Shown in pieces: positions 14,601 through 50,484 of a stretch of DNA of 64,000 nucleotides. A program made the translations under genes and the position numbers. The stretch is from a virus. Each line of letters starts with the position of its first letter. The first letter of the stretch is position 1. The stretch lies in IMG/VR virus record IMGVR_UViG_3300027736_002225; one strand, written 5' to 3'. Below the pieces are notes generated by a model. That model was not told the DNA's origin. It searched no databases and was given only the letters and a program-made list of their open reading frames with translations.

Positions 14601-16573
14601 ACTCTAGCATTTGTAAAATATAAATTAGAACCAAACTCGTTAACATTTGCTGTCGTTAGATCAGAAACATTTGCCTTTAATGCTAGTAATGGAGATACGT
14701 TAGCGTAAACTCTAGCATTACTGAAATATAAGTTTGCTCCATACTCATTAACATTTGCAGTAGTTAAATCTGATACATTTGCTTTAGTTGCTAGTAATGG
14801 AGATACATTGGCATAAACTCTGGCATTAGTATAGTATAAGTTTGACCCAAACTCGTTAACATTTGCGGTTGTTAAATCCGATATATTGGCTTTGGTTGCT
14901 AATAATGGTAATACATTAGCATAAACTCTTGCATTTGTGTAATACAGATTGCTTGCAGATTCTCTTACATTTGCTGTTGTTAAATCTGCAACATTTGCCT
15001 TATTTGATAATAATGGAAATACGTTAGCGTAAACACGAGCATTAGTATAGTAAAGATTGCTTGCAGATTCAATTACGTTTGCAGTAGTTAAATCCGATAC
15101 ATTGGCTTTAGTTACTAATAGTGGAGATACATTTGCATAAACTCTAGCATTAGTGTAATATAAATTACTTGCAGATTCAATTACGTTTGCGGTGTATAAA
15201 TTATTCCAAACATTTGCAGTGATGCTTGTTGTTAAGATATTTAATGCACTTGCATTGCCTGCAATAACAATGCCATTTGCAAGAATAGTATTATTTACAC
15301 TTAGATTGCCGCCAACTAATATATTGCCATATATTGTTGCAGTATTTGTAGTGAATACATTTGATGTAGATACTTGCGATACAATATTTGCAGCAAGTAC
15401 GGTGTTTGTTACATCAATACCTTGTATTGTTAATCCGTTTGCTTTTACATAGCCCGTGACATTTAAATTGCCGCGGAATTGTCCTGATAATGTAAGATTG
15501 CCAAGATTTAAATCTGCATTTGCAAGACTTACTGCACTAGCACCAGAAACATTTGCCCTAATTGTTCCTGTAATAGGATCGTAAGTTATACTTGCATCGC
15601 CGGCGCTAATAGCTGCTCTGGCTCTTGCATTCGTAAAATATAATTTTTGTCCTTCTGCGATATCGTCAGAAGTGCCAGAGAATGTAGTTATTAATCCAGG
15701 ATTTGAACCAATTAATAACCAAGCATTTCCTGAGTACATCAGGAATGCAGAATCTCCGGTCTTTGATAATTCGATAGCAAGATTATTTCTAATATTGCTA
15801 GATATTGTAAATCTACCACCTTGAGTAGATACTAGATTAATAACTTTTAATTGACCATCAACACCTTGGGGAAGATCTAAATATTTTTTACCGCCCGCAT
15901 CTTCACTAACATTTGGAACGGTAAAAACAATATTTGCACCAGGACTACCAGGAGTACCATTTACAACAATATTTGCAGTATATCTACTTCCTAAAGTATT
16001 AGTACCATCAATTGATGTTGATAATCCAATTACATTTCCAGCATTCGTCGAATCACTAACATCAAATATATAGGTTGCACCTTTTGTAAAGGTTAACCCT
16101 GTAGGAAAAGGTCTAAGCCCCGTAGGGCCTACCCAATCATCTGGAGGATAAGAAAAAGTAGTTCCTTGAGCGCCGCCTAAATATATCTTATTGTTTTGCG
16201 CTCTAACATATAATGTCTTTGTAAACGGCGTACCGTTTGCAAAAGTTATGCCTCGTCCAGTGGCAGATTTGCCCTCAGTATAAAAGAATAATGAGGTAGG
16301 TAATACCGAACCGTTTGCAACGGCATTTGCACCAGCGGAAACTCCTCCATATAAATCGGTTCTAGTAGTATTTACACTAATAGTACCCGACGTATACAGA
16401 GATTGAGCGGGGCCGCCAAGAATTATGTTCCCAGATAATGTAGGATCGGTGATCGAAGCGAATAGTGTACCTGCCGATACATTTTCGCTTTGACCATCCT
16501 GAATAAGATATATTAGGTCATCTTTATTTACTACATTAGCTTGGACAAGCTGCGATATCTTTAAATCTGCCAT
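8651..16573 (-). CDS. Giant virion structural protein (2640 aa) with beta-helix/pectin-lyase-like region and KCxRD repeats
   Basis: 'MADLKISQL' start, NLYYTN repeats, 'YVAKNGNDNNTG...VFVKSGDY...GDNLR' motif, repeated 'KCxRD(V/T)GxIxD' units, C-terminal 'SGHTFEYVGSG...TDQRGDFRIG' as in T4-like giant virion proteins. Confidence 0.8.
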   Translation of the reverse strand: MADLKISQLVQANVVNKDDLIYLIQDGQSENVSAGTLFASITDPTLSGNIILGGPAQSLYTSGTISVNTTRTDLYGGVSAGANAVANGSVLPTSLFFYTEGKSATGRGITFANGTPFTKTLYVRAQNNKIYLGGAQGTTFSYPPDDWVGPTGLRPFPTGLTFTKGATYIFDVSDSTNAGNVIGLSTSIDGTNTLGSRYTANIVVNGTPGSPGANIVFTVPNVSEDAGGKKYLDLPQGVDGQLKVINLVSTQGGRFTISSNIRNNLAIELSKTGDSAFLMYSGNAWLLIGSNPGLITTFSGTSDDIAEGQKLYFTNARARAAISAGDASITYDPITGTIRANVSGASAVSLANADLNLGNLTLSGQFRGNLNVTGYVKANGLTIQGIDVTNTVLAANIVSQVSTSNVFTTNTATIYGNILVGGNLSVNNTILANGIVIAGNASALNILTTSITANVWNNLYTANVIESASNLYYTNARVYANVSPLLVTKANVSDLTTANVIESASNLYYTNARVYANVFPLLSNKANVADLTTANVRESASNLYYTNARVYANVLPLLATKANISDLTTANVNEFGSNLYYTNARVYANVSPLLATKANVSDLTTANVNEYGANLYFSNARVYANVSPLLALKANVSDLTTANVNEFGSNLYFTNARVYANVSPLLALKANVSDLTTANVNEFGSNLYFTNARVISAVANSTISNLTVLGNIVSSGNVSASYFIGNGYLLTGIVANVNSVNGNLTVSGNVIANTLIIGSISGGRLTGANLVQTNYISANIWQGIYTANVLESTSNLYFTNARVYANVSPLLALKANVVDLTTANVIESASNLYYTNARVYANVAPLLVGKANVVDLTTANVIEIGSNLYLTNSRVRLALSGGTGVVYSNTTGVISIGQNVATNANVTFGQLNVTGPVNFYGNVTTHASNNLSISDNMIYLNSGSEASNPDLGFAGNYNDGSYHHTGFFRDARNNGTWKVFENYSPEPDANIYIDTSHPSFRLANLAANYLFGNLIGTISSLDNFTTSNLREGANLYYTNARIESYFSNITTSLLPIVGNAFDIGSSDRPFRDLWLYGNSIKFSNSGSISSTGNTFVMTDSSNTIIMSANANALVITSPSGKIDSSLIAASGLSSANIPEGGANLYYSNTRVLANIIPLLNLKANVTDLTTANIVEVGNNLYFSNVKAVNAITQTALSNLTISGNIASPAGNLVIDTITTNRIVANTWSGITTAKVPEAVDNLYFTNTRAQLALQPTIAELRASITAPVANVIYVAKNGNDNNTGNTASNALANIHIALARATEWTTVFVKSGDYTLYNQPVTIGRRVGLVGDNLRTTTIRPSQPAVDMFYVNNACYVTGFTFRDHIAPSAVFSYNPDGSAGTIVTSPYIQNSSSITTTGTGMRVDGRYVSGLRSMVCDSYTQTNEGGIGIHMLYRGYTQLVSVFTICCHIAIKCETGGFCSITNSNASFGTYALYADGVSEALYYGKLRDDTLGQEFVFTNLSQRPNYGDSILFATYNQDKCARDSGLIVDSLAFDLAYGGNTQATFAGLQYWAQTESAIPNQSVETLAAINYAKSLALNVIANVRVSYTYQGSNVQQYASAPTLIADPTSNVKVASEFDIITGIITNGTVGVTDLIIPNSYPANTNAYVNHASNLLYRNNTFIASEVVAFVNSTYPGFTYNANTCARDVGFILDTIRFDLLHGGNKQAVQAGTYYYNYNASTTQINDQVVQTGAAYNYIGQIITNVITKKKNAAYNQDKCERDTGLIVDSVLMDLAYGSNSQSIFAGLQYWSQTDSAIPTQSDETVAAINYAKTLAVNIASDTVISSPYQGTVTQVRGTAGTAAGKVTDEFNLIVDIINNGTVGVTDRIVPNSFPANTNVGLNNSANLIYLNKSFIQAEVIAYVNTTYPGFFANANNFIDVANAQTKCSRDVGYIIDSVRFDLLHDGNRQAIQSGTYYYNYSANVTQINDQIVKTGKAYDYIAQVSNKVVQNKKNAAYNQEKCERDTGLIVDSIALDLAYSGNSQSTFAGLQYWAQSESAIANQSTQTIAAINYAKRLASNIVQNITITSPYQGSVTQVTGSAASPVEANIYSARFDLLTSIITNGTVGVTDSIIPNQYPRTSNTTVTNGANLVIANKSFIQAEVIAYVNTTYPGFFANTNNFVDGANAQTKCSRDVGYILDSITFDLIHGGNKQTIQSGVYYYNFNSNVTQINDQIVKTGQAYTFISGLIDKIILGNVITSTYQTAVPQNTTAAPAATLSEVTTERNLVGIINNIITNGPNVIYARTPISLTASTDANVVNATKLIIANRDFIKAETIAYVNETMFDPPYQIDVLQDTTTYTSATTAEANVIAQKISLIKNIITNGPNVAPAKTPIVYAPVTNANLSNAAKILLINRDYIKAETIAYVNANLFDPPYQTRYKQNTSAAPASDYATANLVLQNIGLVTNIISQGPSVAPARRPIGLTANTSPNVINATKLILANRDYIKAEVIGFVNKNWSNISNGTGTYYTVKNATNLVGNTSTVTLLETIQVAIPANTSVSFHQGSYISSSGHTFEYVGSGDTIATALPYLGGIPKQENEITELRGGKVFFTSTDQRGDFRIGTGLVINRVDGTISGRTFNKALFAVMTPYMLAIEG
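14493..14719. repeat. Exact 108-nt tandem duplication inside the 2640-aa gene
   Basis: Unit starting actctagcatt at 14493, 14601 and 14709; the first two units are identical (36 aa). Confidence 0.9.
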
Positions 16574-25789: not shown

Positions 25790-26032
25790 TTAGAATGCAG
25801 CGTTGCCGTGTGCTGCGTAAGCTGCTGCTACCATTGCACGTGAAGGTGTGCCAAGACGGTATGCTTGCTTACCGTTCTTTGTGGTGTTAGTGTAAACAGC
25901 ATAACCTTCAGCGCGAAGTTCGCTGATACGAGGACGTACGCTGTTCTCTTTGCTTTGTGTCAAACCAGCCAATTGTGCTGGGGTGAATTGACGCCCAGAC
26001 TTAAGTACATTCAAAATACGCGATTTAAGCAT
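25790..26032 (-). CDS. Winged-HTH DNA-binding protein (80 aa; start revised to ATG 26032)
   Basis: MLKSRILNVLKSGRQFTPAQLAGL...SVRPRISELRAEGYAVY; ggag RBS; the track's TTG start lies in the promoter -35 box. Confidence 0.75.
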   Translation of the reverse strand: MLKSRILNVLKSGRQFTPAQLAGLTQSKENSVRPRISELRAEGYAVYTNTTKNGKQAYRLGTPSRAMVAAAYAAHGNAAF

Positions 26033-26108
26033 ATAAAACTCCATTAAACAAAATAACCGCTTCAAAAATTTTACAGTAACGGCGGTTGATTCGTTACTGT
26101 ATCTTGCT

Positions 26109-26137
26109 ATTATAACAGAAAAATGAATTTCTGTCAA
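26109..26137 (-). promoter_or_regulatory. Sigma70-type early promoter
   Basis: TTGACA-17 nt-TATAAT with extended -10 TG. Confidence 0.85.
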
Positions 26138-26140
26138 GCA

Positions 26141-26356
26141 TTATTTACCAGGCTTTTTGACCTTTTGTAAATATTCTATACCAATATGACCCTGCTCAAT
26201 TTCATTTAGAGCAGTTACAATTGCACCGTCGCTAGATAAAATCTTTGCTTTGTGTCCACGTTTAAGTTCTCGTGCTCGAATAGATGCAATAAGAACTAGA
26301 TCATACCTATTACCAATCATGTTGGTTGCTTCTTCTGACGTATATCGTGCTGTCAT
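26141..26356 (-). CDS. rpoZ: RNA polymerase omega subunit homologue
   Basis: 'GNRYDLVLIASIRAREL...IVTALNEIEQG' matches the RpoZ pattern. Confidence 0.85.
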   Translation of the reverse strand: MTARYTSEEATNMIGNRYDLVLIASIRARELKRGHKAKILSSDGAIVTALNEIEQGHIGIEYLQKVKKPGK

Positions 26357-26371
26357 ATCTTCCTTTGTTGT

Positions 26372-26447
26372 TGGTGCGCCGGGAGGGATTTGAACCCCCG
26401 CTCAACAAATTATGAGTTTGCTGCCTTAACCGCTTGGCCACCGGCGC
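26372..26447 (-). tRNA. tRNA-CAT (Ile2 or Met)
   Basis: Cloverleaf, loop CTCATAA, encoded CCA; identity not resolvable by eye. Confidence 0.85.
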
Positions 26448-26454
26448 TAAATTG

Positions 26455-26541
26455 TGGTACGACTGACCGGAATCGAACCGGTACGCCCTTACGGACATCA
26501 GATTTTAAGTCTGAGGCGTCTACCGATTCCGCCACAGTCGC
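26455..26541 (-). tRNA. tRNA-Leu(TAA)
   Basis: Loop CTTAAAA, long variable arm, CCA. Confidence 0.92.
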
Positions 26542-26546
26542 AAAAA

Positions 26547-26822
26547 TTAAGTATCAATATTAGACCATTTTTTCAACTTAATGAATTTGTCTAATTTGAA
26601 TTGCAATAAAATATTACTATCAACTATACCTTGCTTATCTAACAATTCAATCATTGCCAATAGATCTCCAAGTTCTTCTTGTAGCCGATAAAGATTTGTT
26701 TGATTTGGCGTATCTGGATGTGTCGCTTCTAGACCAAACCGAAATACTTTACTGATTGCTTGGATTACTTCAGCACATTCTTCTTGTAGAATCCGAAGTG
26801 TTTCCATTGTTTGTTCGTTCAT
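26547..26822 (-). CDS. MazG-like NTP pyrophosphohydrolase
   Basis: 'LQEECAEVIQAISK...LQEELGDLL' EExxE...EExxD motif. Confidence 0.8.
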   Translation of the reverse strand: MNEQTMETLRILQEECAEVIQAISKVFRFGLEATHPDTPNQTNLYRLQEELGDLLAMIELLDKQGIVDSNILLQFKLDKFIKLKKWSNIDT

Positions 26823-26841
26823 ACTATCACCTTAAAAACAT

Positions 26842-26870
26842 ATTATAACATCTTTTTGACTATCTGTCAA
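26842..26870 (-). promoter_or_regulatory. Sigma70-type early promoter
   Basis: TTGACA-17 nt-TATAAT. Confidence 0.85.
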
Positions 26871-27298
26871 GCATATTCGTAATTAATTGTGTCCAAATTC
26901 TTCCGGAATTCCTTTGCCCCGTTCTTGAGGTGGAATCTACGAGCCATTTCTGTCGTCGGACTCAACGTAACAAATCGTTTGATGTGTGGCTTTGTGCTAA
27001 TTATTTCGTCTCTTGCTTTGAAAATTAAATCACGTCCAGCACCAGGAATGTAACTCCAAATTGTATAGAAGATTACTGTAGATGGTTCTGAAGATGGTTT
27101 TAGTAATTCAATGCATGAACTTGGAATGTCATCCATATATGCAACGCATACTACTGCTTGAGGTTTATTGTCTTTTAATAAAACAAGCACTTCTCTGTTT
27201 TCAGAGATTCTAAATTCTACAGGTATCTCAGGGCGGACAGGATCGTCCTTAATTAGATTCAATATTGGATCAGACAAGTCTGTTGGCTTATATATCAT
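26867..27298 (-). CDS. Hypothetical protein, GNAT/malonyl-CoA-decarboxylase-like fold (143 aa)
   Basis: 'VIFYTIWSY..GAGRDLI...FVTLSP...RFHLKNGA' resembles the MCD/GNAT core. Confidence 0.5.
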   Translation of the reverse strand: MIYKPTDLSDPILNLIKDDPVRPEIPVEFRISENREVLVLLKDNKPQAVVCVAYMDDIPSSCIELLKPSSEPSTVIFYTIWSYIPGAGRDLIFKARDEIISTKPHIKRFVTLSPTTEMARRFHLKNGAKEFRKNLDTINYEYA

Positions 27299-27337
27299 AA
27301 TCTGTGCACCTGAAGAATAGATTTTACATTATACATT

Positions 27338-27345
27338 TATTTATA
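27338..27345 (-). promoter_or_regulatory. T4-type late promoter TATAAATA
   Basis: Exact consensus in intergenic gap. Confidence 0.65.
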
Positions 27346-27385
27346 CAAAAAAACCAACAAATTTTTTCATCTACTGAAAATATAT

Positions 27386-27985
27386 TTAATCTATTAAGAA
27401 GCCTTTCCTCATATAGTCGGGGGCATCTATATATCTTAATTCGTCGGATACTGGTTGGTCAACATCGTCATCGTTCCAAACAGGAATTGCCACAGTGTTG
27501 CCATGGACAAAATCTGGATTTCCTCTTAGATGTACTTCGATGACTTTTTTACCTATGAACTCTATATTAGCATAATCAAACTTACGTAGTACGGAAAGTT
27601 CTATAGGCATATAAAGGGTATCGGCACACTTCTGCCACTTTGAGAATTTCCATAAAGGATCGCCGGGATTTCTAAATCCCTCAACTGCAAGTACTGGCGC
27701 GCCATAAATGTAATCAACACTAATGTGCCGACCTTCAAATATCTCGCACCAGAAAGAACCTGCAGGCAAATGATTAGTATCGTGTTCAATATGATAGAAT
27801 GCCGCACCTTTACCCATACCAATTATATTAGTAACCGGACGCACTATGTAATTACCAGGTTTCGGAACAGGTACACCTGCAGGTCCGCAGACGTATCCCA
27901 ATTTTCTAGAAAGGATTAATTTATCAAATAACCAAAGATCATTTAATTCGCAATTAATCCATGCCTCGTCTTCGCTGATATTCAT
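27386..27985 (-). CDS. ATP-grasp-like phage protein (start revised to MNISEDEAW)
   Basis: ggagg RBS before 27985; 'YIVRP...GMGKGA', 'CEIFEGRHISVD' and 'NIEFIGKKVIEVHLR'. Confidence 0.55.
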   Translation of the reverse strand: MNISEDEAWINCELNDLWLFDKLILSRKLGYVCGPAGVPVPKPGNYIVRPVTNIIGMGKGAAFYHIEHDTNHLPAGSFWCEIFEGRHISVDYIYGAPVLAVEGFRNPGDPLWKFSKWQKCADTLYMPIELSVLRKFDYANIEFIGKKVIEVHLRGNPDFVHGNTVAIPVWNDDDVDQPVSDELRYIDAPDYMRKGFLID

Positions 27986-27996
27986 AGTGCCTCCAA

Positions 27997-28479
27997 TTAT
28001 GCTGCTTGTTGATATGCTAAAATTTCCTTCAAACGGTCTGCACAATAAGAAGCCGCAAATGCGTTTGGTTTAACCATCGGTACAACATTACAAGTACCTT
28101 TGATATAACCAACTGCTTGTTGAATCACTATAGAACTATTATGCCTTAGATCCGGGTTGATATCCAAATGAATTTCAACTTCCCGTTCTCCAATGCAATC
28201 TTCGATCAAGTGATACAAATCTGCAACTCTGTACACTTCTGACATTAGACGCATCGAAGGCCGTTGAGCCTTAGAATCATAGTCAATCTCAGTTTGTACT
28301 TCGCCAAAAATCTTACAACCATGTCGTCCATCGATGTGAACTACGATTGCGAGAGTATAATCTGCATACCATTTGCCGTCGCGTTTATATCTTTCAGAGT
28401 CAGCACCAATGTAAATTTTGGTTTCTAGACTTTGAGCTTCAATAAAAGCTTTTACTTCAGCAATATTTATCTTTCTCAT
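27997..28479 (-). CDS. RNase H-like YkuK family protein
   Basis: 'KIYIGADS...RLMSEV...EIHLDIN...KPNAFAASYCAD'. Confidence 0.8.
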   Translation of the reverse strand: MRKINIAEVKAFIEAQSLETKIYIGADSERYKRDGKWYADYTLAIVVHIDGRHGCKIFGEVQTEIDYDSKAQRPSMRLMSEVYRVADLYHLIEDCIGEREVEIHLDINPDLRHNSSIVIQQAVGYIKGTCNVVPMVKPNAFAASYCADRLKEILAYQQAA

Positions 28480-28499
28480 AATTCACCTCATTAAAAACA

Positions 28500-28573
28500 T
28501 GGAGCGGGTAGAGAGAATCGAACTCTCACATTAACCTTGGCAAGGTCATAAGCTACCATTACATCATACCCGC
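28500..28573 (-). tRNA. tRNA-Gly(GCC)
   Basis: Loop TTGCCAA, CCA. Confidence 0.92.
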
Positions 28574-28575
28574 AC

Positions 28576-28651
28576 TGGTGGTAATAGTTGGACTCGAACC
28601 AACGATAGACTGCGTATGAAGCAGTTGCATTAGCCACTATGCTATATTACC
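28576..28651 (-). tRNA. tRNA-Met(CAT)
   Basis: Loop TTCATAC, CCA; Met versus Ile2 identity uncertain. Confidence 0.85.
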
Positions 28652-28658
28652 TTATATA

Positions 28659-28735
28659 TGGCCGGCCCTGAGAGATTCGAACTCCCAACCTCAAGTTTCG
28701 AAGACTTGCTTTCTATCCAATTGAATTAAGGGCCG
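28659..28735 (-). tRNA. tRNA-Arg(TCG)
   Basis: Loop CTTCGAA, CCA. Confidence 0.9.
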
Positions 28736-28740
28736 TAAAC

Positions 28741-28827
28741 TGGCAGAGAGTGTGGGAGTCGAACCCACTCGCCCCTTTCGGAGCGTCAGATTAGCAATCT
28801 GGTGCCTTACCATCCAGCCCACTCTCC
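28741..28827 (-). tRNA. tRNA-Ser(GCT)
   Basis: Loop TTGCTAA, long variable arm, CCA. Confidence 0.92.
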
Positions 28828-28833
28828 TAAACT

Positions 28834-29397
28834 TTACATCGTTGGTCCGTTACCATTGCGAAAACCAATCTCACCACCTTCTTCTTTGATTCGTTTTAAC
28901 ACATCTTCAAATAAGATAGGTGCAAAATCAGTTTGTTCAACACAAACACAATGATATCGAACATCCACTATTCCATCTTTCATTACTCTGTTAGAGTGCA
29001 AATGTCCGTGAATGTTAACACCAAATCTACCCAACGATTCAGTATGAATTGGTATATGACTTAAGATCATTCCATTCATAACATGATATGCTCGCAATTC
29101 GCGGAAGTATGCTCTATACTCATCGTCACGGAAAATATCGTGATTGCCGCGAATTAAAACCTTATCGCCGTTTAAGCGAGCCATTATGGACAACGCTTTA
29201 CGGTTTATAACTACATCACCTAAGTGATATACTTTATCGTTTGGTCGAACTGTTTCGTTCCAACGCTTAACCATTTCCTCATCCATTTCTGCAGGATCAG
29301 TCCATGGCCTAAGTTTTGTGACACCGTCGTTGCGAGTAAATTTACATACGCCGGCATGACCGAAATGAGTATCGCTTACTAAAAATACTGCTGGCAT
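28834..29397 (-). CDS. Calcineurin-like metallophosphoesterase
   Basis: SDTHFGH, HLGD, GNHD and HGHLH motifs. Confidence 0.9.
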   Translation of the reverse strand: MPAVFLVSDTHFGHAGVCKFTRNDGVTKLRPWTDPAEMDEEMVKRWNETVRPNDKVYHLGDVVINRKALSIMARLNGDKVLIRGNHDIFRDDEYRAYFRELRAYHVMNGMILSHIPIHTESLGRFGVNIHGHLHSNRVMKDGIVDVRYHCVCVEQTDFAPILFEDVLKRIKEEGGEIGFRNGNGPTM

Positions 29398-29413
29398 ATT
29401 ATACTCCTTAACT

Positions 29414-29503
29414 TGGAGGAAGATGTGAGATTCGAACTCACGGAACCCTTTCAGATCCGCTAGTTTTCAAGACTAGAGCCATAAGCCACTCGGCCAATCT
29501 TCC
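29414..29503 (-). tRNA. tRNA-Ser(TGA)
   Basis: Loop CTTGAAA, long variable arm, CCA. Confidence 0.92.
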
Positions 29504-29512
29504 GTTATTATT

Positions 29513-29589
29513 TGGCATCCCGGGTAAGAATCGAACTTACAACCTTTGGCTTTGGAGGCCACTGCTCTGCCTGATTGAGCTACCGAGAC
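29513..29589 (-). tRNA. tRNA-Trp(CCA)
   Basis: Loop CTCCAAA, CCA end. Confidence 0.9.
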
Positions 29590-29598
29590 ATATTTTAC

Positions 29599-29674
29599 TG
29601 GTGCAACCTAGAGGAATCGAACCTCTTTCAACGGTTCTTCAGACCGCCGCTATGACCACATCAGCTAAAGTTGC
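29599..29674 (-). tRNA. tRNA-Phe(GAA)
   Basis: Loop CTGAAGA, CCA. Confidence 0.9.
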
Positions 29675-29683
29675 ATTATTTAT

Positions 29684-29759
29684 TGGGGTGTCTGATGGGG
29701 ATCGAACCCACGCATATCGGAATCACAACCCGAGGCCTTACCACTTGGCGACAGACACC
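29684..29759 (-). tRNA. tRNA-His(GTG)
   Basis: Loop TTGTGAT, G-1:C73, CCA. Confidence 0.92.
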
Positions 29760-29821
29760 ATATAGAAACACACTATCTACTACGGATCCACGTTTTACGC
29801 AGACAATGTGTTCTTATATGG
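29758..29821 (-). ncRNA. Long spacer hairpin between tRNA-Lys and tRNA-His
   Basis: CCATATAAGAACACATTGTCTGC pairs with GTAGATAGTGTGTTTCTATATGG (about 22 bp, G-U pairs on the minus strand). Confidence 0.6.
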
Positions 29822-29894
29822 TAGGACGTATTGGATTCGAACCAATGACCAATAGATTAAAAGTCTACTGCTCTACCATCTGAGCTAACGTCCC
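29819..29894 (-). tRNA. tRNA-Lys(TTT)
   Basis: Loop CTTTTAA, CCA. Confidence 0.92.
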
Positions 29895-29948
29895 GTTTAT
29901 CTTATCACTCTTGTCACTATTCATAACAGATCTCCTTTTTAAAAAATT

Positions 29949-30022
29949 TGGCAGAGGGTACTGGGTTTGAACCAGTGATGACAGAGTCAAAGTCTGTAGT
30001 GTTACCGCTACACTAACCCCCA
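29949..30022 (-). tRNA. tRNA-Gln(TTG)
   Basis: Loop CTTTGAC, CCA. Confidence 0.9.
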
Positions 30023-30029
30023 ACAAAAA

Positions 30030-30104
30030 TGGTCCGCCGAAGAGGAATCGAACCTCTATTAATAGCTTAGAAGGCCACTGTTCTATCCGTTGAACTATCG
30101 GCAG
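30030..30104 (-). tRNA. tRNA-Arg(TCT)
   Basis: Loop CTTCTAA, CCA. Confidence 0.92.
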
Positions 30105-30111
30105 AAAAATC

Positions 30112-30381
30112 TTATTCAGCTTCTACAACTGCAAGAATATCTTCTTCAGAGATAATTCCAATATACAAGTCTCCGTCTTTAACTACTTTTGATTTTGTCC
30201 ACATAGGATAAACAATATCTCCAACCTTTACTTCTTTAACATCTGGCCCAATAGCAAGAACTGTACCTGCTCGAGTATTGCTGTCTCCATTAGCTTCACC
30301 TAAATAGATTCCGCTATCTGTAACTTTTTTCTTTTCATTCTCAATGACCAGAACTTTGTTCTGCAATGGGATATAGTTCAT
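30112..30381 (-). CDS. groES: GroES-like co-chaperonin
   Basis: 'PLQNKVLV...TDSGIYL...GTVLAIGP...VKVGDIV...EEDILAVV'. Confidence 0.88.
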   Translation of the reverse strand: MNYIPLQNKVLVIENEKKKVTDSGIYLGEANGDSNTRAGTVLAIGPDVKEVKVGDIVYPMWTKSKVVKDGDLYIGIISEEDILAVVEAE

Positions 30382-30402
30382 AAAATTTCCTTAAAATAAA
30401 AA

Positions 30403-30477
30403 TGGTACCTTGTGACAGGATTGAACTGCCGACCGTCGCCTTGTAAGGGCGCTGCTCTACCGCTGAGCTAACAAGGC
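30403..30477 (-). tRNA. tRNA-Val(TAC)
   Basis: Loop CTTACAA, CCA. Confidence 0.92.
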
Positions 30478-30481
30478 GGTT

Positions 30482-30568
30482 TGGTGGATGCGGATGGACT
30501 CGAACCACCAACGTTTCTTATGTCACGGATTTACAGTCCGCTGCCTTCACCATTCGGCACACGCATCC
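30482..30568 (-). tRNA. tRNA-Tyr(GTA)
   Basis: Loop CTGTAAA, long variable arm, CCA. Confidence 0.92.
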
Positions 30569-30574
30569 TAAAAC

Positions 30575-30649
30575 TGGCTCCTCGACGTGGGGTCGAACCA
30601 CGGACCAACAGATTAACAGTCTGCTGCTCTACCTCTGAGCTATCGAGGA
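30575..30649 (-). tRNA. tRNA-Asn(GTT)
   Basis: Loop CTGTTAA, CCA. Confidence 0.93.
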
Positions 30650-30655
30650 ATAAAA

Positions 30656-30733
30656 TGGTCTCCGATGAGAGATTCGAACTCCCGTTATTCTTCATCCCAA
30701 ATGAAGTGCCATACCAGGCTAGGCGAATCGGAG
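30656..30733 (-). tRNA. tRNA-Pro(TGG)
   Basis: Loop TTTGGGA, CCA. Confidence 0.92.
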
Positions 30734-30737
30734 AAAT

Positions 30738-30811
30738 TGGAGCGGGGTGCGAGAATCGAACTCGCGCTATCAGCTTGGAAGGCTGAAATCCTACCATTAA
30801 ATGAACCCCGC
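30738..30811 (-). tRNA. tRNA-Gly(TCC)
   Basis: Loop CTTCCAA, CCA. Confidence 0.92.
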
Positions 30812-30817
30812 AAATAC

Positions 30818-30892
30818 TGGTGCCCCTTGCTGGAATCGAACCAACACACCCTGCTTACAAAACAGGACCTCTACCATTAAGGATAAAAGGGC
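30818..30892 (-). tRNA. tRNA-Thr(TGT)
   Basis: Loop TTTGTAA, CCA. Confidence 0.9.
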
Positions 30893-30902
30893 AAAAAAAT
30901 TT

Positions 30903-30978
30903 TGGTGGAGAATATCAGATTCGAACTGATCGCCCCCTGCTTGCAAAGCAGATGCTCTACCAAATGAGCTAATCCCCC
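30903..30978 (-). tRNA. tRNA-Ala(TGC)
   Basis: Loop TTTGCAA, G3:U70, CCA. Confidence 0.93.
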
Positions 30979-31029
30979 AAGGTGACTTATTACTTAGCCT
31001 ATTATACGCCATAAGTCAAAGCGAGTATC

Positions 31030-31106
31030 TGGTGCCCTAGGGGAGACTTGAACTCCCAGAACCTGGTTTCTAAGACCAGTACGTATACCAATTCCGTCAC
31101 CAGGGC
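31030..31106 (-). tRNA. tRNA-Leu(TAG), short variable region
   Basis: Loop CTTAGAA, 77 nt, CCA. Confidence 0.88.
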
Positions 31107-31112
31107 AAAACT

Positions 31113-31188
31113 TGGCGGTCTGTAGGGAATTCGAATCCCTCCTACAAGCGTGACAGGCTCGCGTGCTTACCGCTAACACTAACAGACC
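31113..31188 (-). tRNA. tRNA-Asp(GTC)
   Basis: Loop CTGTCAC, CCA. Confidence 0.92.
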
Positions 31189-31391
31189 AAATTAGGATAA
31201 GCTACTAGGTTCCACCCTAGCCCTTAATTGAGCGGTTACTCTGTCCATCTTTTTTATCTGGTACCTGTGTGCAGAAAGATAACTGCCTATCAGAGCCTGA
31301 GACCACGTGCTTGGACTCGCTCACGGTTTTCTGCCACCGGACCTCTATCGCTAGTCAAACGCTACTTTAACGAAAGTAGTAACGGGATTCT
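31189..31391 (-). ncRNA. Candidate structured ncRNA A (~200 nt)
   Basis: GC-richer gap between tRNAs with hairpins CTACTTT/AAAGTAG, CGGT/ACCG, GCAG/CTGC and CTAGG/CCTAG. Confidence 0.5.
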
Positions 31392-31467
31392 TGGAGTGCG
31401 CGACAGGAGTTGAACCTGCATGATACGGATTTGCAATCCGCTCCCTAGCCATTCGGGTCACGCGCAC
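31392..31467 (-). tRNA. tRNA-Cys(GCA)
   Basis: Loop TTGCAAA, U73, CCA. Confidence 0.92.
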
Positions 31468-31469
31468 AT

Positions 31470-31618
31470 ATTATTGTTAAGTGTTATCGTACAAATTCTG
31501 AGATAGCCGCTAAGCATGCTCAATGCCGATGTAGTTATTTCAGGATCAGTCGCCGGCTGCTTTGACCCGAATAGTGTAAGCGTCCTTACACGATACCTTG
31601 ATAACACTTAACAATAAT
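31470..31618 (-). ncRNA. Candidate structured ncRNA B (~150 nt)
   Basis: Perfect 19-bp terminal stem (31470-31488 with 31600-31618) enclosing a GTGTAAG-gacg-CTTACAC hairpin and others. Confidence 0.65.
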
Positions 31619-31620
31619 TA

Positions 31621-31854
31621 CCATATTAAAATGCACTAGGATGTCTGACAACAATTCCACTGGAACTAACCACGCATTCGTCATGCGACTGGTCGTCATC
31701 CACATTACAGTCCAACTTACTCCAGCGCGACGCGGAGAATCAAGCCTAAGCTGACCTCTGTCTTTCTTGTGTCAAGAAGGAGTCTGTGCGGCCACAGATT
31801 TAGTACTCCACTTGATCACCTACTGGGTTGGTAACCTAATACATTTTAATATGG
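31621..31854 (-). ncRNA. Candidate structured ncRNA C (~230 nt)
   Basis: 20-bp terminal stem (two G-U pairs on the minus strand) enclosing at least 5 hairpins. Confidence 0.65.
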
Positions 31855-31927
31855 AGTCCTGTACGGGATTCGAACCCGTGTGAATACCGTGAAAGGGTAC
31901 TATCCTAGGCCACTAGATGAACAGGAC
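31852..31927 (-). tRNA. tRNA-Glu(TTC)
   Basis: Loop CTTTCAC, CCA. Confidence 0.92.
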
Positions 31928-31932
31928 ATATA

Positions 31933-32006
31933 TGGTATCCAGTAGAGGTAACGCTCCTCTGTCTTACGATTATCAGTCGTATGCTCTACTATTGAGCTAA
32001 CCGGAT
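31933..32006 (-). tRNA. tRNA-Ile(GAT), non-canonical T-loop
   Basis: Loop CTGATAA; T-arm AGAGG-AGCGTTA-CCTCT; CCA. Confidence 0.85.
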
Positions 32007-32083
32007 ACATTTTAAAATGATATACAAATTTTAAAAGAACTATAAGCAACTAACTCTATCATTCTGTTGCTGTTTATGTGTCT

Positions 32084-32112
32084 ATTATAGCACACTCTTG
32101 ACATCTTGTCAA
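32084..32112 (-). promoter_or_regulatory. Consensus sigma70 promoter for the tRNA operon
   Basis: TTGACA-agatgtcaagagtgtgc(17)-TATAAT with extended -10 TG. Confidence 0.9.
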
Positions 32113-32155
32113 ATCTTATTTTAAAGACCCTTTGCTTTGCTAGGGTACTTAAAAT

Positions 32156-32191
32156 AAAAAACCCTCGGACTTTGCGGGTACCGAGGGTTTT
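32156..32191 (-). terminator. Intrinsic terminator (attenuator) upstream of the tRNA operon
   Basis: AAAACCCTCGG-tacccgcaaagt-CCGAGGG-TTTTTT. Confidence 0.85.
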
Positions 32192-32218
32192 AATAGATTT
32201 CAGAAATGTTCTGCAAAC

Positions 32219-32314
32219 TTACCCTCGATGCACTCTCCATGAATTTGGACGCGCAAAGCATTCTGGCTGTGTGCCATAAATGTCTTTTCCGTGGGATGCG
32301 AGTTTACTTAACAT
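32219..32314 (-). CDS. Putative leader peptide containing all 20 amino acids (31 aa; not in ORF track)
   Basis: MLSKLASHGKDIYGTQPECFARPNSWRVHRG*; AAGGA RBS; 3' end complementary to the terminator 5' arm. Confidence 0.8.
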   Translation of the reverse strand: MLSKLASHGKDIYGTQPECFARPNSWRVHRG

Positions 32315-32336
32315 TACTTTTTTCCTTGCTATAAAT

Positions 32337-32344
32337 TATTTATA
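32337..32344 (-). promoter_or_regulatory. T4-type late promoter TATAAATA driving the leader
   Basis: Exact consensus 22 nt upstream of the leader ATG. Confidence 0.8.
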
Positions 32345-32385
32345 GTCTAGAACATCTATCTATCGGTACTTTTTAAACTTTATTT

Positions 32386-32805
32386 TCAAACTGTTGCTTC
32401 TGCAAGTTCTTTGATTTCTTCAATATCGAAATCTTCATCTTTTGCTTTTACAACTTTTACTGGCTTTGTTTTCTTAGCAGGAGCAACTGGAGTCACTGGT
32501 TTGCTTTTAACAAGAGCCACTGCTTTGGTTGCTTTAACCTTTGCAGGCTTTGCTACCGCAACACCTTGTTTCTTACCCATGGTTTCTGTAATAACAGAAT
32601 TCCATTGTGCAAAGACTCCGCCCGCATCTAGCAGATACTGACAAGCTTCTGCTTTAGTCATCGGCTTAGGCAGCTCGATAAGTTCAAGTGGATTGTGTCC
32701 GCCTTTGGACAACAGCTTAACACGAGATGCCAGATCATTGGCAAAACGAACCTTGGTGCCTTGTTCGGCGTGGGTGGAAACACCTGCAACTGTGAATGTA
32801 CTCAT
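32386..32805 (-). CDS. Hypothetical early protein with Lys/Ala/Pro-rich tail (139 aa)
   Basis: 'FTVAGVS...KVRFAND...LIELPKPMTKAEA'; follows a sigma70 promoter. Confidence 0.65.
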   Translation of the reverse strand: MSTFTVAGVSTHAEQGTKVRFANDLASRVKLLSKGGHNPLELIELPKPMTKAEACQYLLDAGGVFAQWNSVITETMGKKQGVAVAKPAKVKATKAVALVKSKPVTPVAPAKKTKPVKVVKAKDEDFDIEEIKELAEATV

Positions 32806-32853
32806 AATATAGACCTTTCAAAAAATTGATAAATTAACGACTTCACATTTCAT

Positions 32854-32882
32854 ATTATATACCCTTTCGGGCGGCTTGTCAA
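32854..32882 (-). promoter_or_regulatory. Sigma70-type early promoter
   Basis: TTGACA-17 nt-TATAAT. Confidence 0.85.
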
Positions 32883-33268
32883 GCACTTTTTGTGTCCAAA
32901 AGCAAAAATTCCTTAATCTTTTTGACGTGCTTGCAATCTCTACGGAATTGGAACCCCACGCAATCACATGAGACCTTGCCATTTCCAGAAATTACGTTAT
33001 AGACTGAACCTTTTAGTTTGGACTTTACCTTGAACACTCGTGTATCTGAGCGCTGTTTGGAAAACTCAAAACCAACGATAAACCTCTTATGGATGTAAGA
33101 AGTAGGGTATTCTTTAGTCCCTGTATGTACAGAAACGTAATCGTTATCCAACCACGTAGGATTGCTAACAACTCTACCCTTGAACACTACATTGTCGTAT
33201 TCTACGTTAAGTAGATTGGACTTGAATCTAGCGTGCAGCTCTACGGTTTGACCTATTTCTAACTTCAT
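32879..33268 (-). CDS. SWIM zinc-finger protein (start revised to 33268)
   Basis: 'CDCVGFQFRRDCKH' CxCxnCxH motif. Confidence 0.75.
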   Translation of the reverse strand: MKLEIGQTVELHARFKSNLLNVEYDNVVFKGRVVSNPTWLDNDYVSVHTGTKEYPTSYIHKRFIVGFEFSKQRSDTRVFKVKSKLKGSVYNVISGNGKVSCDCVGFQFRRDCKHVKKIKEFLLLDTKSA

Positions 33269-33274
33269 AACCAT

Positions 33275-33303
33275 ATTATAACAGAAAAAAGAACCCGAGT
33301 CAA
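33275..33303 (-). promoter_or_regulatory. Sigma70-type early promoter
   Basis: TTGACT-17 nt-TATAAT. Confidence 0.8.
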
Positions 33304-33316
33304 ATGCTCGGGTTCT
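33285..33316 (-). terminator. Intrinsic terminator overlapping the promoter -35 box
   Basis: AGAACCCGAG-catttga-CTCGGGTTCT-TTTTT. Confidence 0.75.
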
Positions 33317-33358
33317 AGGTGTTGTTTTTTAACAACAGGGTCGTTTTTTGCTTAATTT

Positions 33359-33511
33359 TTAAGCATTTTCCTTCTCGATTATTCCTTCTGATTCTAAATA
33401 GTCTAAAGTATCCTCGACTCCTTCGTTGTGACCCCATTTAAAGCACGCATAGCATGCTGCAAGCATTAGGGCTATTTGTATCATATCATATAGCGTAAAT
33501 GTATAATTCAT
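33359..33511 (-). CDS. Small membrane protein (50 aa; not in ORF track)
   Basis: MNYTFTLYDMIQIALMLAACYACFKWGHNEGVEDTLDYLESEGIIEKENA*; aaggag RBS. Confidence 0.7.
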   Translation of the reverse strand: MNYTFTLYDMIQIALMLAACYACFKWGHNEGVEDTLDYLESEGIIEKENA

Positions 33512-33540
33512 ATTTCGCTCCTTATAGTTATTTTAGCATA

Positions 33541-34026
33541 TCACAAAAACCAATCAGCTTGCCGTTGTTTTAGATTTTTAAATTGATCATGTTCAATTAT
33601 AAATTTTGCAACAAGACCATTTTCCATACCATAGGCTTCTATTTCCCATGGTTGGTCCCAATAGGAATAGTCTTCATCATATTTCACACCGAACCATGAT
33701 GTAATACATCGGCTTTTACTAAACCTATCTTTTACCTCTCCTTTGGCTAGTTGTTTTAGATGAACCATTTCGTGTGCGAGAATTTTAAACATAAGAATCG
33801 TTTTTTTAGTACGCTGTATGTCAATGCTAAATTCTCGGGGATTGCCTGTATCACTAAATTCATAATTACAATATCCACCTGCATCTATATTGTCTCTTAC
33901 TGTAATTTTAACAGTAATATTCTTTGACATCTGAGGTGAGAGCAAATTTCCTGCATAGGAATGCGCCGCCAATTTAAGTAGTTTTACGAGAGTGTTATCT
34001 TTCGCGTTTCTGACGGTGACGTACAT
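33541..34026 (-). CDS. Putative zinc metallopeptidase
   Basis: 'LAHEMVHLKQ...PWEIEAY' HExxH...E motif; late promoter TATAAATA at 34043-34050. Confidence 0.75.
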   Translation of the reverse strand: MYVTVRNAKDNTLVKLLKLAAHSYAGNLLSPQMSKNITVKITVRDNIDAGGYCNYEFSDTGNPREFSIDIQRTKKTILMFKILAHEMVHLKQLAKGEVKDRFSKSRCITSWFGVKYDEDYSYWDQPWEIEAYGMENGLVAKFIIEHDQFKNLKQRQADWFL

Positions 34027-47217: not shown

Positions 47218-47292
47218 TGGATGCGGGTGATGGATTCGCACCACCGACCTCTGGATTATGAGTCCAGCGCGCTACTACTGCGCCAACCCGCA
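47218..47292 (-). tRNA. tRNA-Met(CAT), initiator-like, isolated from the main array
   Basis: TGCGGGT acceptor, loop CTCATAA, T-loop TGCGAAT, CCA. Confidence 0.8.
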
Positions 47293-48365: not shown

Positions 48366-48875
48366 TTACAGATTTTCTTCTGTAAGAAATTGAGGCTTGC
48401 TAGATTTTTTTGCAGGTTTTACTGCAACTTCTACCTCATCTTTCACATCAATTTTCTTTGGTTTCTTGTGCTCAGGAATAATACGCTCAAGAGCAATCTT
48501 TAGCATACCATTAATTAAAGCAGCATCTTTAATTTCAATTTGGTCGTTAAGAGCAAATGTTCTTGTGAAATTACGTGAAGCGATTCCTTTGTACAACCAC
48601 TCTAGTGCGTCGTTGTCCTCAGCTGCATTGCCTTTGATAACGAGTTTATCGTCAACAAATTCAATTTCGATTTCTTGTTTAGAAAATCCAGCAACAGCCA
48701 TTTCGATAACATATTTGTTCTCGTCTGTTTTCTTAATGTTGTATGGAGGATAGCTGGGAATGTTTTTAGTAATGTCATCATGAATTTGCGCCATTCGAGT
48801 AAATTGATTGTCAAAACCAACAAAAAATTTATCAAAGTCCTTAAAGCCAGGACCGAATACTGATAGATGTGTCAT
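48366..48875 (-). CDS. Small heat-shock protein Hsp20/IbpA (start revised to MTHLSV)
   Basis: 'SYPPYNI...IEMAVAGF...KGIASRNFTRTF...NGMLKIALERIIPE'; ggag RBS. Confidence 0.93.
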   Translation of the reverse strand: MTHLSVFGPGFKDFDKFFVGFDNQFTRMAQIHDDITKNIPSYPPYNIKKTDENKYVIEMAVAGFSKQEIEIEFVDDKLVIKGNAAEDNDALEWLYKGIASRNFTRTFALNDQIEIKDAALINGMLKIALERIIPEHKKPKKIDVKDEVEVAVKPAKKSSKPQFLTEENL

Positions 48876-48876
48876 A

Positions 48877-49098
48877 TTAATCTCCCTTTTTTGTAATGCC
48901 AGTAATTGTATTTGCAAATGTTTCTGTAGCAACGGTCATAACGTCATTAGCAGACTTAGCAATTTGTTTTGTAAAGACACGTTGTGCCTCAACGAAATCA
49001 ACTAAAGGTTTAAGAAGGGATTCTTCCTTAACTGTTTGTTTGAGGAAGTTAATTTTGGCGTTTTGAATTGAATCAATAGCCATGTTTGAATAAAACAT
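48877..49098 (-). CDS. Phasin-like small helical protein (73 aa)
   Basis: 'IDSIQNAKINF...FVEAQRVFTKQIAK'; aggag RBS. Confidence 0.55.
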   Translation of the reverse strand: MFYSNMAIDSIQNAKINFLKQTVKEESLLKPLVDFVEAQRVFTKQIAKSANDVMTVATETFANTITGITKKGD

Positions 49099-49356: not shown

Positions 49357-49680
49357 TTATACAGTAAACGAACTACCGCATCCACAAGTATGCTTAGCAT
49401 TTGGATTTGTTATAACAAATTCCTTTGACATAAAAGAACCTTTATAGTCAATGACAGCCCCTGTTAAGTATTGCATACTAATAGCATCTATTAGTAATTT
49501 AAAATTGTCAAGCGGTATTTCAAAATCATCTTCATTTTTTACATGATCTAACGTAAACCCATAATTAAATCCTGAGCAGCCACCACCTTGGACAAAAGTT
49601 CTAAGACAAGCCTCGGGATTGTCTTCTTCAATTAATATGTCTAGTATTTTAGACTTTGCAGCATCTGTTACTGTAATCAT
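49357..49680 (-). CDS. A-type Fe-S carrier (IscA/ErpA/HesB)
   Basis: 'GGGCSGFNY' and 'NPNAKHTCGCGSSF'. Confidence 0.93.
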   Translation of the reverse strand: MITVTDAAKSKILDILIEEDNPEACLRTFVQGGGCSGFNYGFTLDHVKNEDDFEIPLDNFKLLIDAISMQYLTGAVIDYKGSFMSKEFVITNPNAKHTCGCGSSFTV

Positions 49681-50035
49681 GGATCGCTGCCTTTATAGCA
49701 TCTTCTGCTAGAATTGAACAATGTATTTTAACTGGAGGGAGGGCTAGCTCTTTTGCAATTTGTGAGTTTTTGATGTTAGCAGCATCATTAATATGCATAC
49801 CCTTAACCCACTCAGTAACCAACGACGAACTCGCGATTGCTGAACCACATCCATATGTCTTGAAACGAGCATCTCTAATAAAACCATTATCATCCACTTT
49901 TATTTGTAATTTCATTACATCGCCGCAAGCCGGTGCACCGACCATTCCCGTTCCTATACCGGATTCGTTTTTATCAAAGCTTCCAACGTTTCTTGGATTT
50001 TCGTAATGATCGAGAACAGTTGTTGAATATGACAT
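49649..50035 (-). CDS. iscU: Fe-S scaffold IscU (start revised to MSYSTTVLDHY)
   Basis: 'HYENPRNVG', 'GAPACGDVM', 'GCGSAIASSS' and 'LPPVKIHCS'. Confidence 0.95.
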   Translation of the reverse strand: MSYSTTVLDHYENPRNVGSFDKNESGIGTGMVGAPACGDVMKLQIKVDDNGFIRDARFKTYGCGSAIASSSLVTEWVKGMHINDAANIKNSQIAKELALPPVKIHCSILAEDAIKAAIHDYSNRCCKV

Positions 50036-50055
50036 ATAGTTATTTATACGGATTA

Positions 50056-50484
50056 TTAGTCCGTAGTTTGCTTTTTCTTGCCAATATTGTATTTTGTTTG
50101 TAAAGACCATTCATGTTTGTCTTTAAAAGCAATTACTTTAATCTGCGATAATGGAGCAAGTTGTTGAAACAATTCTGCTTTTATAACTTTTACTAAACCC
50201 CAATCTATTAGCAATTTAGCAATTGTATTACGTCGCTCCAGATCATTATCCGTTAGATCGGCAGATTTGCCATCTAACGCAAACAATTCTTTAAAGTGTA
50301 CAATAAAATATCTGCCCTGTTTATGCAGAATATGACACGATTGATATAGCACCTTATCTTTTCGTGATGCCACGCCAATACGTGTGAGTGTTTCTCGGAC
50401 TTTTAAAAAGTCGTCCGGTTGAGTTAAGGTTACTTCTAATGGATTATAACCAGGAAAATCAATGTGAAAAATATCTTCAGCCAT
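50056..50484 (-). CDS. regA: RegA translational repressor
   Basis: 'DDFLKVRETLTRIGVAS...LYQSCHILHKQGRYFIVHFKELFALDG'. Confidence 0.95.
   Translation of the reverse strand: MAEDIFHIDFPGYNPLEVTLTQPDDFLKVRETLTRIGVASRKDKVLYQSCHILHKQGRYFIVHFKELFALDGKSADLTDNDLERRNTIAKLLIDWGLVKVIKAELFQQLAPLSQIKVIAFKDKHEWSLQTKYNIGKKKQTTD

Follow-up and report, generated by a model that had tools for sequence, protein, structure and literature searches.

We analysed a 64,000-nucleotide (nt) stretch of DNA (IMG/VR virus record IMGVR_UViG_3300027736_002225; hereafter the window) from an uncultured T4-like lake phage, in which a minus-strand cassette precedes a complete set of tRNA genes. The cassette carries a promoter motif of the T4 late type, a short leader open reading frame (ORF) whose codons specify every one of the 20 amino acids (a 'pangram' leader), an intrinsic terminator, a second promoter and the tRNA array. 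The following features were located, in order of the minus strand.

32337..32344, minus strand: T4-type late-promoter consensus TATAAATA, an exact match
32323..32327, minus strand: Shine-Dalgarno sequence AAGGA, 8 nt 5' of the ATG
32219..32314, minus strand: leader ORF with ATG start, 31 codons plus stop, 20 amino acids, 29 distinct codons
32289..32318, minus strand: region 1, the start codon and first ~9 codons, complementary to the ORF end and the spacer after the stop codon
32221..32229, minus strand: region 2, the putative antiterminator strand, the last 8 coding nt and the first nt of the stop codon
32201..32213, minus strand: spacer hairpin CAGAA/TTCTG (5-base-pair stem, 3-nt loop), between the stop codon and the terminator
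32150..32191, minus strand: intrinsic terminator (regions 3 and 4), 11-base-pair GC-rich stem, 12-nt loop, T6AT4 tract
32084..32112, minus strand: sigma-70 promoter TTGACA-17-TATAAT with extended -10, 12/12 match, 3' of the terminator
32025..32040, minus strand: boxA-like conserved motif, just 5' of the first tRNA
26372..32006, minus strand: array of 25 tRNA genes, the first being tRNA-Ile at 32006 (ARAGORN and Rfam)

The spacer between the ORF stop and the terminator is 27 nt long, and the terminator hairpin has an energy of -17.5 kcal/mol. The array represents all 20 amino acids, and one further, isolated tRNA-Met lies at 47218. A preliminary description of this locus had listed the late promoter, the AAGGA, the ORF, the 27-nt spacer, the terminator and the 25 tRNAs, and we found all of them on the minus strand where it had placed them. 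Our recount agrees with its 20 amino acids and 29 distinct codons in 31, the CAGAA/TTCTG hairpin is present in the spacer, and every factual statement that it made about the locus holds. Transcription of the leader is presumably late, as the promoter motif suggests.

The leader contains no runs of control codons, and each amino acid is present one to three times. Thirty-one residues drawn with the window's composition contain all 20 amino acids with a probability of ~4e-4; for a uniform composition the value is 2e-3. There are 489 ATG-initiated ORFs of 20-45 amino acids in the window, and two others (37 and 39 amino acids) contain all 20. The first is the C-terminus of a 277-amino-acid ORF and was dismissed as chance. 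The 39-amino-acid ORF (31705-31586, minus strand) was also judged to be chance, and the structured array gap that holds it is absent from the arrays of the L008 clade. Because two more such ORFs exist in the window, the leader ORF on its own is unusual yet not decisive, a curiosity picked post hoc. At the level of sequence comparison, complete coverage is decisive once it is seen in relatives that were picked irrespective of the peptide.

The query for relatives was the neighbouring 139-amino-acid protein (32386-32805), which is independent of the leader, and viral contigs (IMG/VR) were searched with it. This returned 77 loci with 42-100% identity, and a homologous small ORF was found in about 55 of them (profile E-values 1e-9 to 1e-19). 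Wherever downstream sequence was available, the cassette order was kept: TATAAATA, an ORF of 31-38 codons, a hairpin spacer of 26-34 nt, the terminator, the sigma-70 promoter and the tRNA array. We distinguished 26 leader variants in about 11 clades, encoding peptides of 31-38 amino acids with 21-47% identity to that of the window. A DNA-pattern scan for more leaders added two new variants of a single clade, the rest of its hits being chance matches.

The cassette is linked to the tRNA arrays. In loci where a gene of ~265 amino acids is inserted after the 139-amino-acid gene, the cassette remains beside the array and not beside the 139-amino-acid gene, and the five loci without tRNAs are also without the cassette. 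In the arrays downstream of the cassette, 21-26 tRNAs represent 18-20 amino acids. Within the window, no further leader cassette was found in three gaps of the array (two structured and RNA-like, one containing a Cpn10 gene), and the isolated tRNA-Met at 47218 has no leader.

The signals around the ORF are conserved as well. Ten of 11 clades retain TATAAATA 5' of the leader amid diverging flanks. A Shine-Dalgarno sequence was found in five clades including that of the window, and AGGAG or AAGGA occurs at similar spacing in the other four. In three further groups (the L008, L014/L047/L054 and L075 clades) the leader ATG lies exactly 5-6 nt after TATAAATA, which is a leaderless spacing, and the mRNA in these clades would be leaderless. 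The terminator is near-invariant across 14 aligned relatives, with one compensatory pair, and a further compensatory change occurs in L075. A hairpin is predicted at the spacer position in other clades too; that it acts as a pause site is speculation. At the peptide level, a core consisting of an aromatic-Ala-Arg stretch followed by Asn-Ser-Trp is common to most clades.

All 20 amino acids are present in 16 of the 26 variants, 19 in eight and 18 in two. We compared this coverage with column shuffles, in which residues are permuted within alignment columns, so that conservation and composition are preserved and complementarity within each sequence is broken. The observed coverage of 13 representatives was 19.77, against 17.58 +/- 0.28 after shuffling, and none of 20,000 shuffles was as high. 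The excess persisted with gap patterns fixed. Leaving out the window's clade and representing each clade by its least favourable member still gave a coverage of 19.4 versus 17.57 in the shuffles (highest shuffle 18.7). Under the family's own composition, the probability of all 20 amino acids is 0.1-1.2% per peptide. The coverage belongs to the ORF frame: this frame has 19.7 distinct residues, compared with 15.8-16.3 in the other five, and no other frame is stop-free in all 12 representatives. The columns that supply the rare residues (Asp, His, Lys, Tyr, Val, Cys and Phe) differ from clade to clade.

Among codons that vary within clades, 31 changes are nonsynonymous and 12 synonymous, with no excess at third positions. 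What appears to be selected is the composition in the ORF frame, together with the RNA, and not a particular peptide sequence, so translation appears to be what is measured. Thus, we conclude with high confidence that the leader ORF is a translated element selected for complete amino acid coverage. It also follows from these counts that the preliminary description's expectation of an ORF with near-complete composition at homologous loci was borne out (~55 loci, 26 variants, coverage 18-20).

These data bear on the simplest competing account, that the stretch is a non-coding late RNA or a chance intergenic ORF whose composition is accidental. It could draw on the two other all-20 short ORFs in the window, on third codon positions that are no more variable than the others, and on a codon choice poorer than that of the phage genes. 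However, the ORF is intact in 26 of 26 variants and is the sole frame that is always open and of high coverage, its coverage exceeds all 20,000 column shuffles with the window's clade excluded too, and the translation-start signals are conserved. We consider this account very unlikely.

A second account treats the ORF as a late micro-gene in its own right, equipped with a terminator; the peptide would act in trans or have an unrelated role, and the terminator would do no more than insulate the separately promoted array from transcription that arrives from upstream. The peptide core common to most clades and the strong terminator are in its favour. A peptide acting in trans should show purifying selection, whereas the changes within clades run 31:12 in the nonsynonymous direction. 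This account also offers no reason for complete coverage to be selected within a minimal length, and it leaves the strict linkage to tRNA arrays unexplained. We return to it below with the RNA and the downstream promoter.

Three more specific rules for the choice of codons were tried and rejected. Both Ser boxes (AGY and TCN) are present in 24 of 24 variants tested, and both Arg boxes (AGR and CGN) in all but one; the paired Ser boxes, and likewise the paired Arg boxes, require different tRNAs. The rule of one codon per phage tRNA isoacceptor is inconsistent for Leu and Gly, and is suggestive only. A rule that the leader mirrors its array was unsupported: L085 has Phe in neither leader nor array, but L093 and L104 have it in the leader and no tRNA-Phe in the array. 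A rare-codon design was also set aside: in 10 of 12 clades, leader codons are less preferred than those of the phage genes (z -2 to -3), and constraint from RNA structure explains this equally well.

We then considered the RNA that the ORF forms with the terminator. The preliminary description had proposed that the ORF end pairs over 9 base pairs with the terminator 5' arm, and folding predicts such a helix: with the 3' arm omitted, ViennaRNA pairs region 2 of the window with 32188-32180 over 9 base pairs, and the minimum free energy (MFE) structure pairs the terminator 5' arm with the ORF end in most clades. When all 24-nt segments of the leader were ranked as partners of the 5' arm, the ORF end came first in the window (-15.3 kcal/mol). 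The complementarity of regions 2 and 3 is conserved. In 8 of 12 clades, no segment pairs with the 5' arm as well as the GAGGGT-like ORF end does (-12 to -17 kcal/mol). The ORF end of L014 comes close to the best, and the top-ranked segment of L053 is 9-12 nt before the stop codon. The GGG of region 2 is a whole codon in the window, occupies codon positions 3-1-2 in most clades and positions 2-3-1 in L057/L065. Read this way, the nucleotides of region 2 are kept while the reading frame shifts across them (three frames). The micro-gene account leaves both this retention and the complementarity to the 5' arm unexplained.

Region 1 can form a further helix with region 2. In the window, the 1:2 duplex has an energy of -18.8 kcal/mol (z -2.65) and is also part of the full-length MFE structure. 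Analogous 1:2 helices were found in 10 of 14 variants with z -2.4 to -6.4, reaching about -30 kcal/mol in the L035 clade. The 1:2 helix together with the terminator arms gives the classical four-region layout. The distance from the stop codon to the 5' arm is 26-34 nt, which rules out direct masking of the terminator by the ribosome.

The effect of a ribosome was modelled by partition functions on transcripts truncated ahead of the 3' arm, a ribosome being masked in for each A-site codon in turn; these are equilibrium values that ignore kinetics and the bulk of the ribosome. In six leaders (the window, L008, L014, L017, L053 and L075), the antiterminator is predicted with a probability of 0.77-1.0 when no ribosome is present or when one stalls anywhere between codon 2 and about codon n-6; with the ribosome on the last ~5 codons or the stop, the predicted probability drops to about 0. 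In the window's leader, the antiterminator is predicted for A-site codons 2-26, a sensed zone that comprises 18 amino acids, with Val and elongator Met outside it. Folding with a ribosome mask thus yields the antiterminator for early stalls and its loss at the ORF end. It also bears out a caveat of the preliminary description, that stalls at the last ~5 codons may still mask the antiterminator: its loss is predicted there and at the stop codon.

Taken together, the best reading is probably a trp-style attenuator that senses the decoding of nearly every amino acid. In the mechanism that we infer, RNA polymerase starting at TATAAATA, or coming in from the upstream gene, would transcribe the leader while a ribosome translates it concurrently. 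If decoding is fast, the ribosome would reach the last codons or the stop and cover region 2, the terminator (3:4) would form, and transcription would end before the array. A ribosome held up at almost any earlier codon, possibly by a scarce, uncharged or cleaved tRNA, would leave region 2 free to pair with the terminator 5' arm, and the antiterminated polymerase would read past the boxA-like site into the tRNA genes. The 1:2 helix may let only the first ribosome, the co-transcriptional one, take part in the decision. In early infection, the array's own sigma-70 promoter, 3' of the terminator, would drive it unconditionally, and to this the switch would add demand-dependent tRNA synthesis, presumably late. 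We lean towards this reading, in which the 31-codon pangram leader between the T4-type late promoter and the array serves as a stall-to-read-through attenuator feeding the array, with moderate confidence.

Several observations weigh against it. When the antiterminator was aligned in a fixed register, 62% of cells paired, equal to shuffles, so the covariation that the preliminary description had proposed to look for does not support the pairing. Tails pair no better with their own 5' arm (-12.6 kcal/mol) than with the arms of other clades (-11.5 kcal/mol), and the 2:3 pairing is weak, at -4 to -8 kcal/mol, in the L016/L024/L015 clade. In the L035, L049 and L057 clades, the 1:2 helix wins in the equilibrium model unless a ribosome covers the first 9-12 codons, which makes the predicted sensed zone smaller there. 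Val in the window's leader falls in the predicted blind zone. L093 and L104 have leaders that contain Phe and arrays without tRNA-Phe, and L019, L021, L067, L070 and L072 have tRNA arrays without the cassette. As to the late promoter, TATAAATA is not enriched in the window, with 12 copies found versus 13.5 expected (11 of the 12 are on the coding strand, several of them 17-34 nt 5' of ORF starts), and a late sigma factor was not identified. The presence of the sigma-70 promoter and the boxA-like motif 3' of the terminator, which makes the array independent of read-through, is taken up below.

A further point against the proposed switch concerns the end of the leader. In 10 of 13 clades, the one amino acid that would otherwise be missing is contributed by residues beyond the conserved Trp, and own tails beat swapped tails in completing coverage (p 0.0015; 0.011 for ten independent clades). 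The tail codons count for coverage although occlusion would leave them unsensed, so that sensing may work otherwise than by classical occlusion, for instance through ribosome release. This brings in a third account, a translation-coupled switch of different logic, in which the outcome is set by completed translation and release, with all codons up to the last being sensed, or in which the ribosome affects transcript stability or processing. The contribution of the tail codons, which occlusion leaves unexplained, supports it, as does the strong 1:2 helix that encloses the whole ORF in several clades. Yet region 2 is the only structural link between the stop codon and the terminator, the terminator is self-sufficient, and the distance from the stop codon to the 5' arm excludes direct masking. 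We regard such a switch as quite unlikely.

The preliminary description had the leader gating the tRNA array, and did not mention the array's own sigma-70 promoter. This promoter, located after the terminator, is conserved in nearly all relatives. With the promoter in this position, the proposed switch can gate only transcription arriving from upstream and can only add to the expression of the array. That the array has a consensus promoter and a boxA-like site of its own, both 3' of the terminator, speaks for the micro-gene account, and the lack of covariation in the antiterminator also fits that account. In L074 (3553-3806, plus strand), however, tRNA-Asp begins ~12 nt after the terminator T-tract with no promoter between them. 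L074 is, as far as its sequence tells, the one natural case of an array head that depends solely on read-through, and it runs against the micro-gene account. Weighing these points with those given above, we judge an independent micro-gene unlikely.

The boxA-like motif is about 16 nt long and consists of GTTC, a T/A-rich run and a TTTG end. It lies 10-20 nt 5' of the first tRNA in every clade, and its position is conserved in the window and in L008, L015, L017, L023, L035, L049, L053, L057 and L075. In L017 and L075 it looks much like the rrn boxA antitermination box. The transcript of the array may recruit host antitermination factors of the rRNA type.

The stretch that holds the sigma-70 promoter (32059-32154, minus strand) recurs at six other sites of the nearest record, G001 (G001:C1, at about 102198, 106519, 107438, 109395, 111208 and 112139), with 72-94% identity, which suggests a family of early-promoter modules. 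Four more perfect or near-perfect TTGACA-17-TATAAT sites were found within 26000-34000 of the window. Inside the tRNA array, an 89-amino-acid Cpn10/GroES co-chaperonin gene lies at 30112-30381 (minus strand; Pfam PF00166, E 6e-13), and two gaps that are G+C-richer and rich in hairpins (31468-31851 and 31189-31391, both minus strand) are candidate stable RNAs with no Rfam match.

The phage itself was assigned from the replication proteins encoded in the window. These are a family-B DNA polymerase, a UvsX-type recombinase and a DnaB-like helicase, with a gp45-type sliding clamp, and the phage is therefore T4-like. The G+C content of the window is ~35%. In a collection of cultured phages, nothing similar was found by megablast, blastn or tblastn, protein level included. 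The nearest record, G001, is a 113-kb IMG/VR contig with 99% identity across the region. Two giant ORFs are present, of 2431 amino acids at 1023-8318 and 2640 amino acids at 8651-16573 (both minus strand). The former contains seven repeats of the Chlorovirus-glycoprotein type (PF06598) and is probably a fibre or surface protein. Auxiliary genes at 48366-48932, 49649-50110 and 55157-56359 (minus strand) encode an Hsp20-like protein, a NifU-like Fe-S assembly protein and a fused E1 dehydrogenase/transketolase-like protein.

Attenuation is textbook knowledge for amino acid operons. The trpL, hisL, leuL, thrL, pheL and ilv leaders consist of a short translated leader, an intrinsic terminator and 1:2, 2:3 and 3:4 helices. 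The phage cassette resembles attenuators of the trp/his/leu class in its leader ORF, its terminator and its predicted alternative and upstream helices, and in that a ribosome at the ORF end would favour termination. Unlike them, it has no runs of cognate codons, each amino acid occurring about once and completeness being conserved, and its downstream genes are phage tRNA genes. It further differs in that its leader is driven by a T4-type late-promoter motif, its region 1 includes the start codon, and a second, constitutive promoter after the terminator means that the leader is not the sole path to the genes.

T-box riboswitches also couple tRNA charging to the choice between terminator and antiterminator. 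They bind one uncharged tRNA without translation, and control aminoacyl-tRNA synthetase or amino acid genes. An Rfam search of 31950-32450 gave only tRNA and two chance-level matches, with no T-box or other family.

The nearest tested precedent is the upstream ORF (uORF) attenuator of whiB7/wblC of Actinobacteria, studied in M. smegmatis, which is activated via genes related to 18 of 20 amino acids (PMC10274678). The M. smegmatis uORF lacks only Cys and is enriched in alanine; with its single Trp codon removed it no longer responds to Trp, and likewise for its His codons and His (PMC10274678). These removals indicate that single codons can suffice, and that the composition of the uORF sets what is sensed. 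The gene whiB7 encodes a transcription factor for antibiotic and alanine stress, and the composition of the uORF varies by species, being incomplete in M. tuberculosis (PMC10274678). The phage leader is alike in its broad sensing by leader composition, which for the phage we infer from the selection on coverage. It differs in that it precedes tRNA genes, its completeness is conserved within 31-38 codons, and the two have no sequence relationship. Full-text literature searches turned up neither a case of tRNA arrays, phage or bacterial, being controlled by a leader peptide nor a leader selected for all 20 amino acids in ~31-38 codons. For tRNA genes, the searches thus agree with the preliminary description, whose author knew of no such element.

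That description had gone on to propose a general sensor of decoding, or of the tRNA pool. The conserved cassette, the selection on coverage and the preference of the ORF end for the 5' arm support this proposal; the antiterminator without covariation and the bypass promoter do not. We give about even chances to homeostatic control of phage tRNA arrays by the pangram leader, in which slow decoding of any codon class would raise late tRNA transcription. Starvation, host shut-off or anticodon nucleases are possible causes of the slow decoding.

Among the relatives, there are leaders from which single amino acids are naturally missing (F, V, A, D, H/I or W), the 1:2 and 2:3 helices vary in strength, and L074 has no bypass promoter. 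If the proposed switch is true, the unit of ~190 nt would be a compact natural sensor of overall translation capacity, reusable as a reporter. Phages with full tRNA sets would then measure decoding speed and feed it back on tRNA transcription, rather than merely over-supply tRNAs. This would be relevant to the question of why tRNA arrays occur in large phages and how these phages cope with the depletion or cleavage of host tRNAs.

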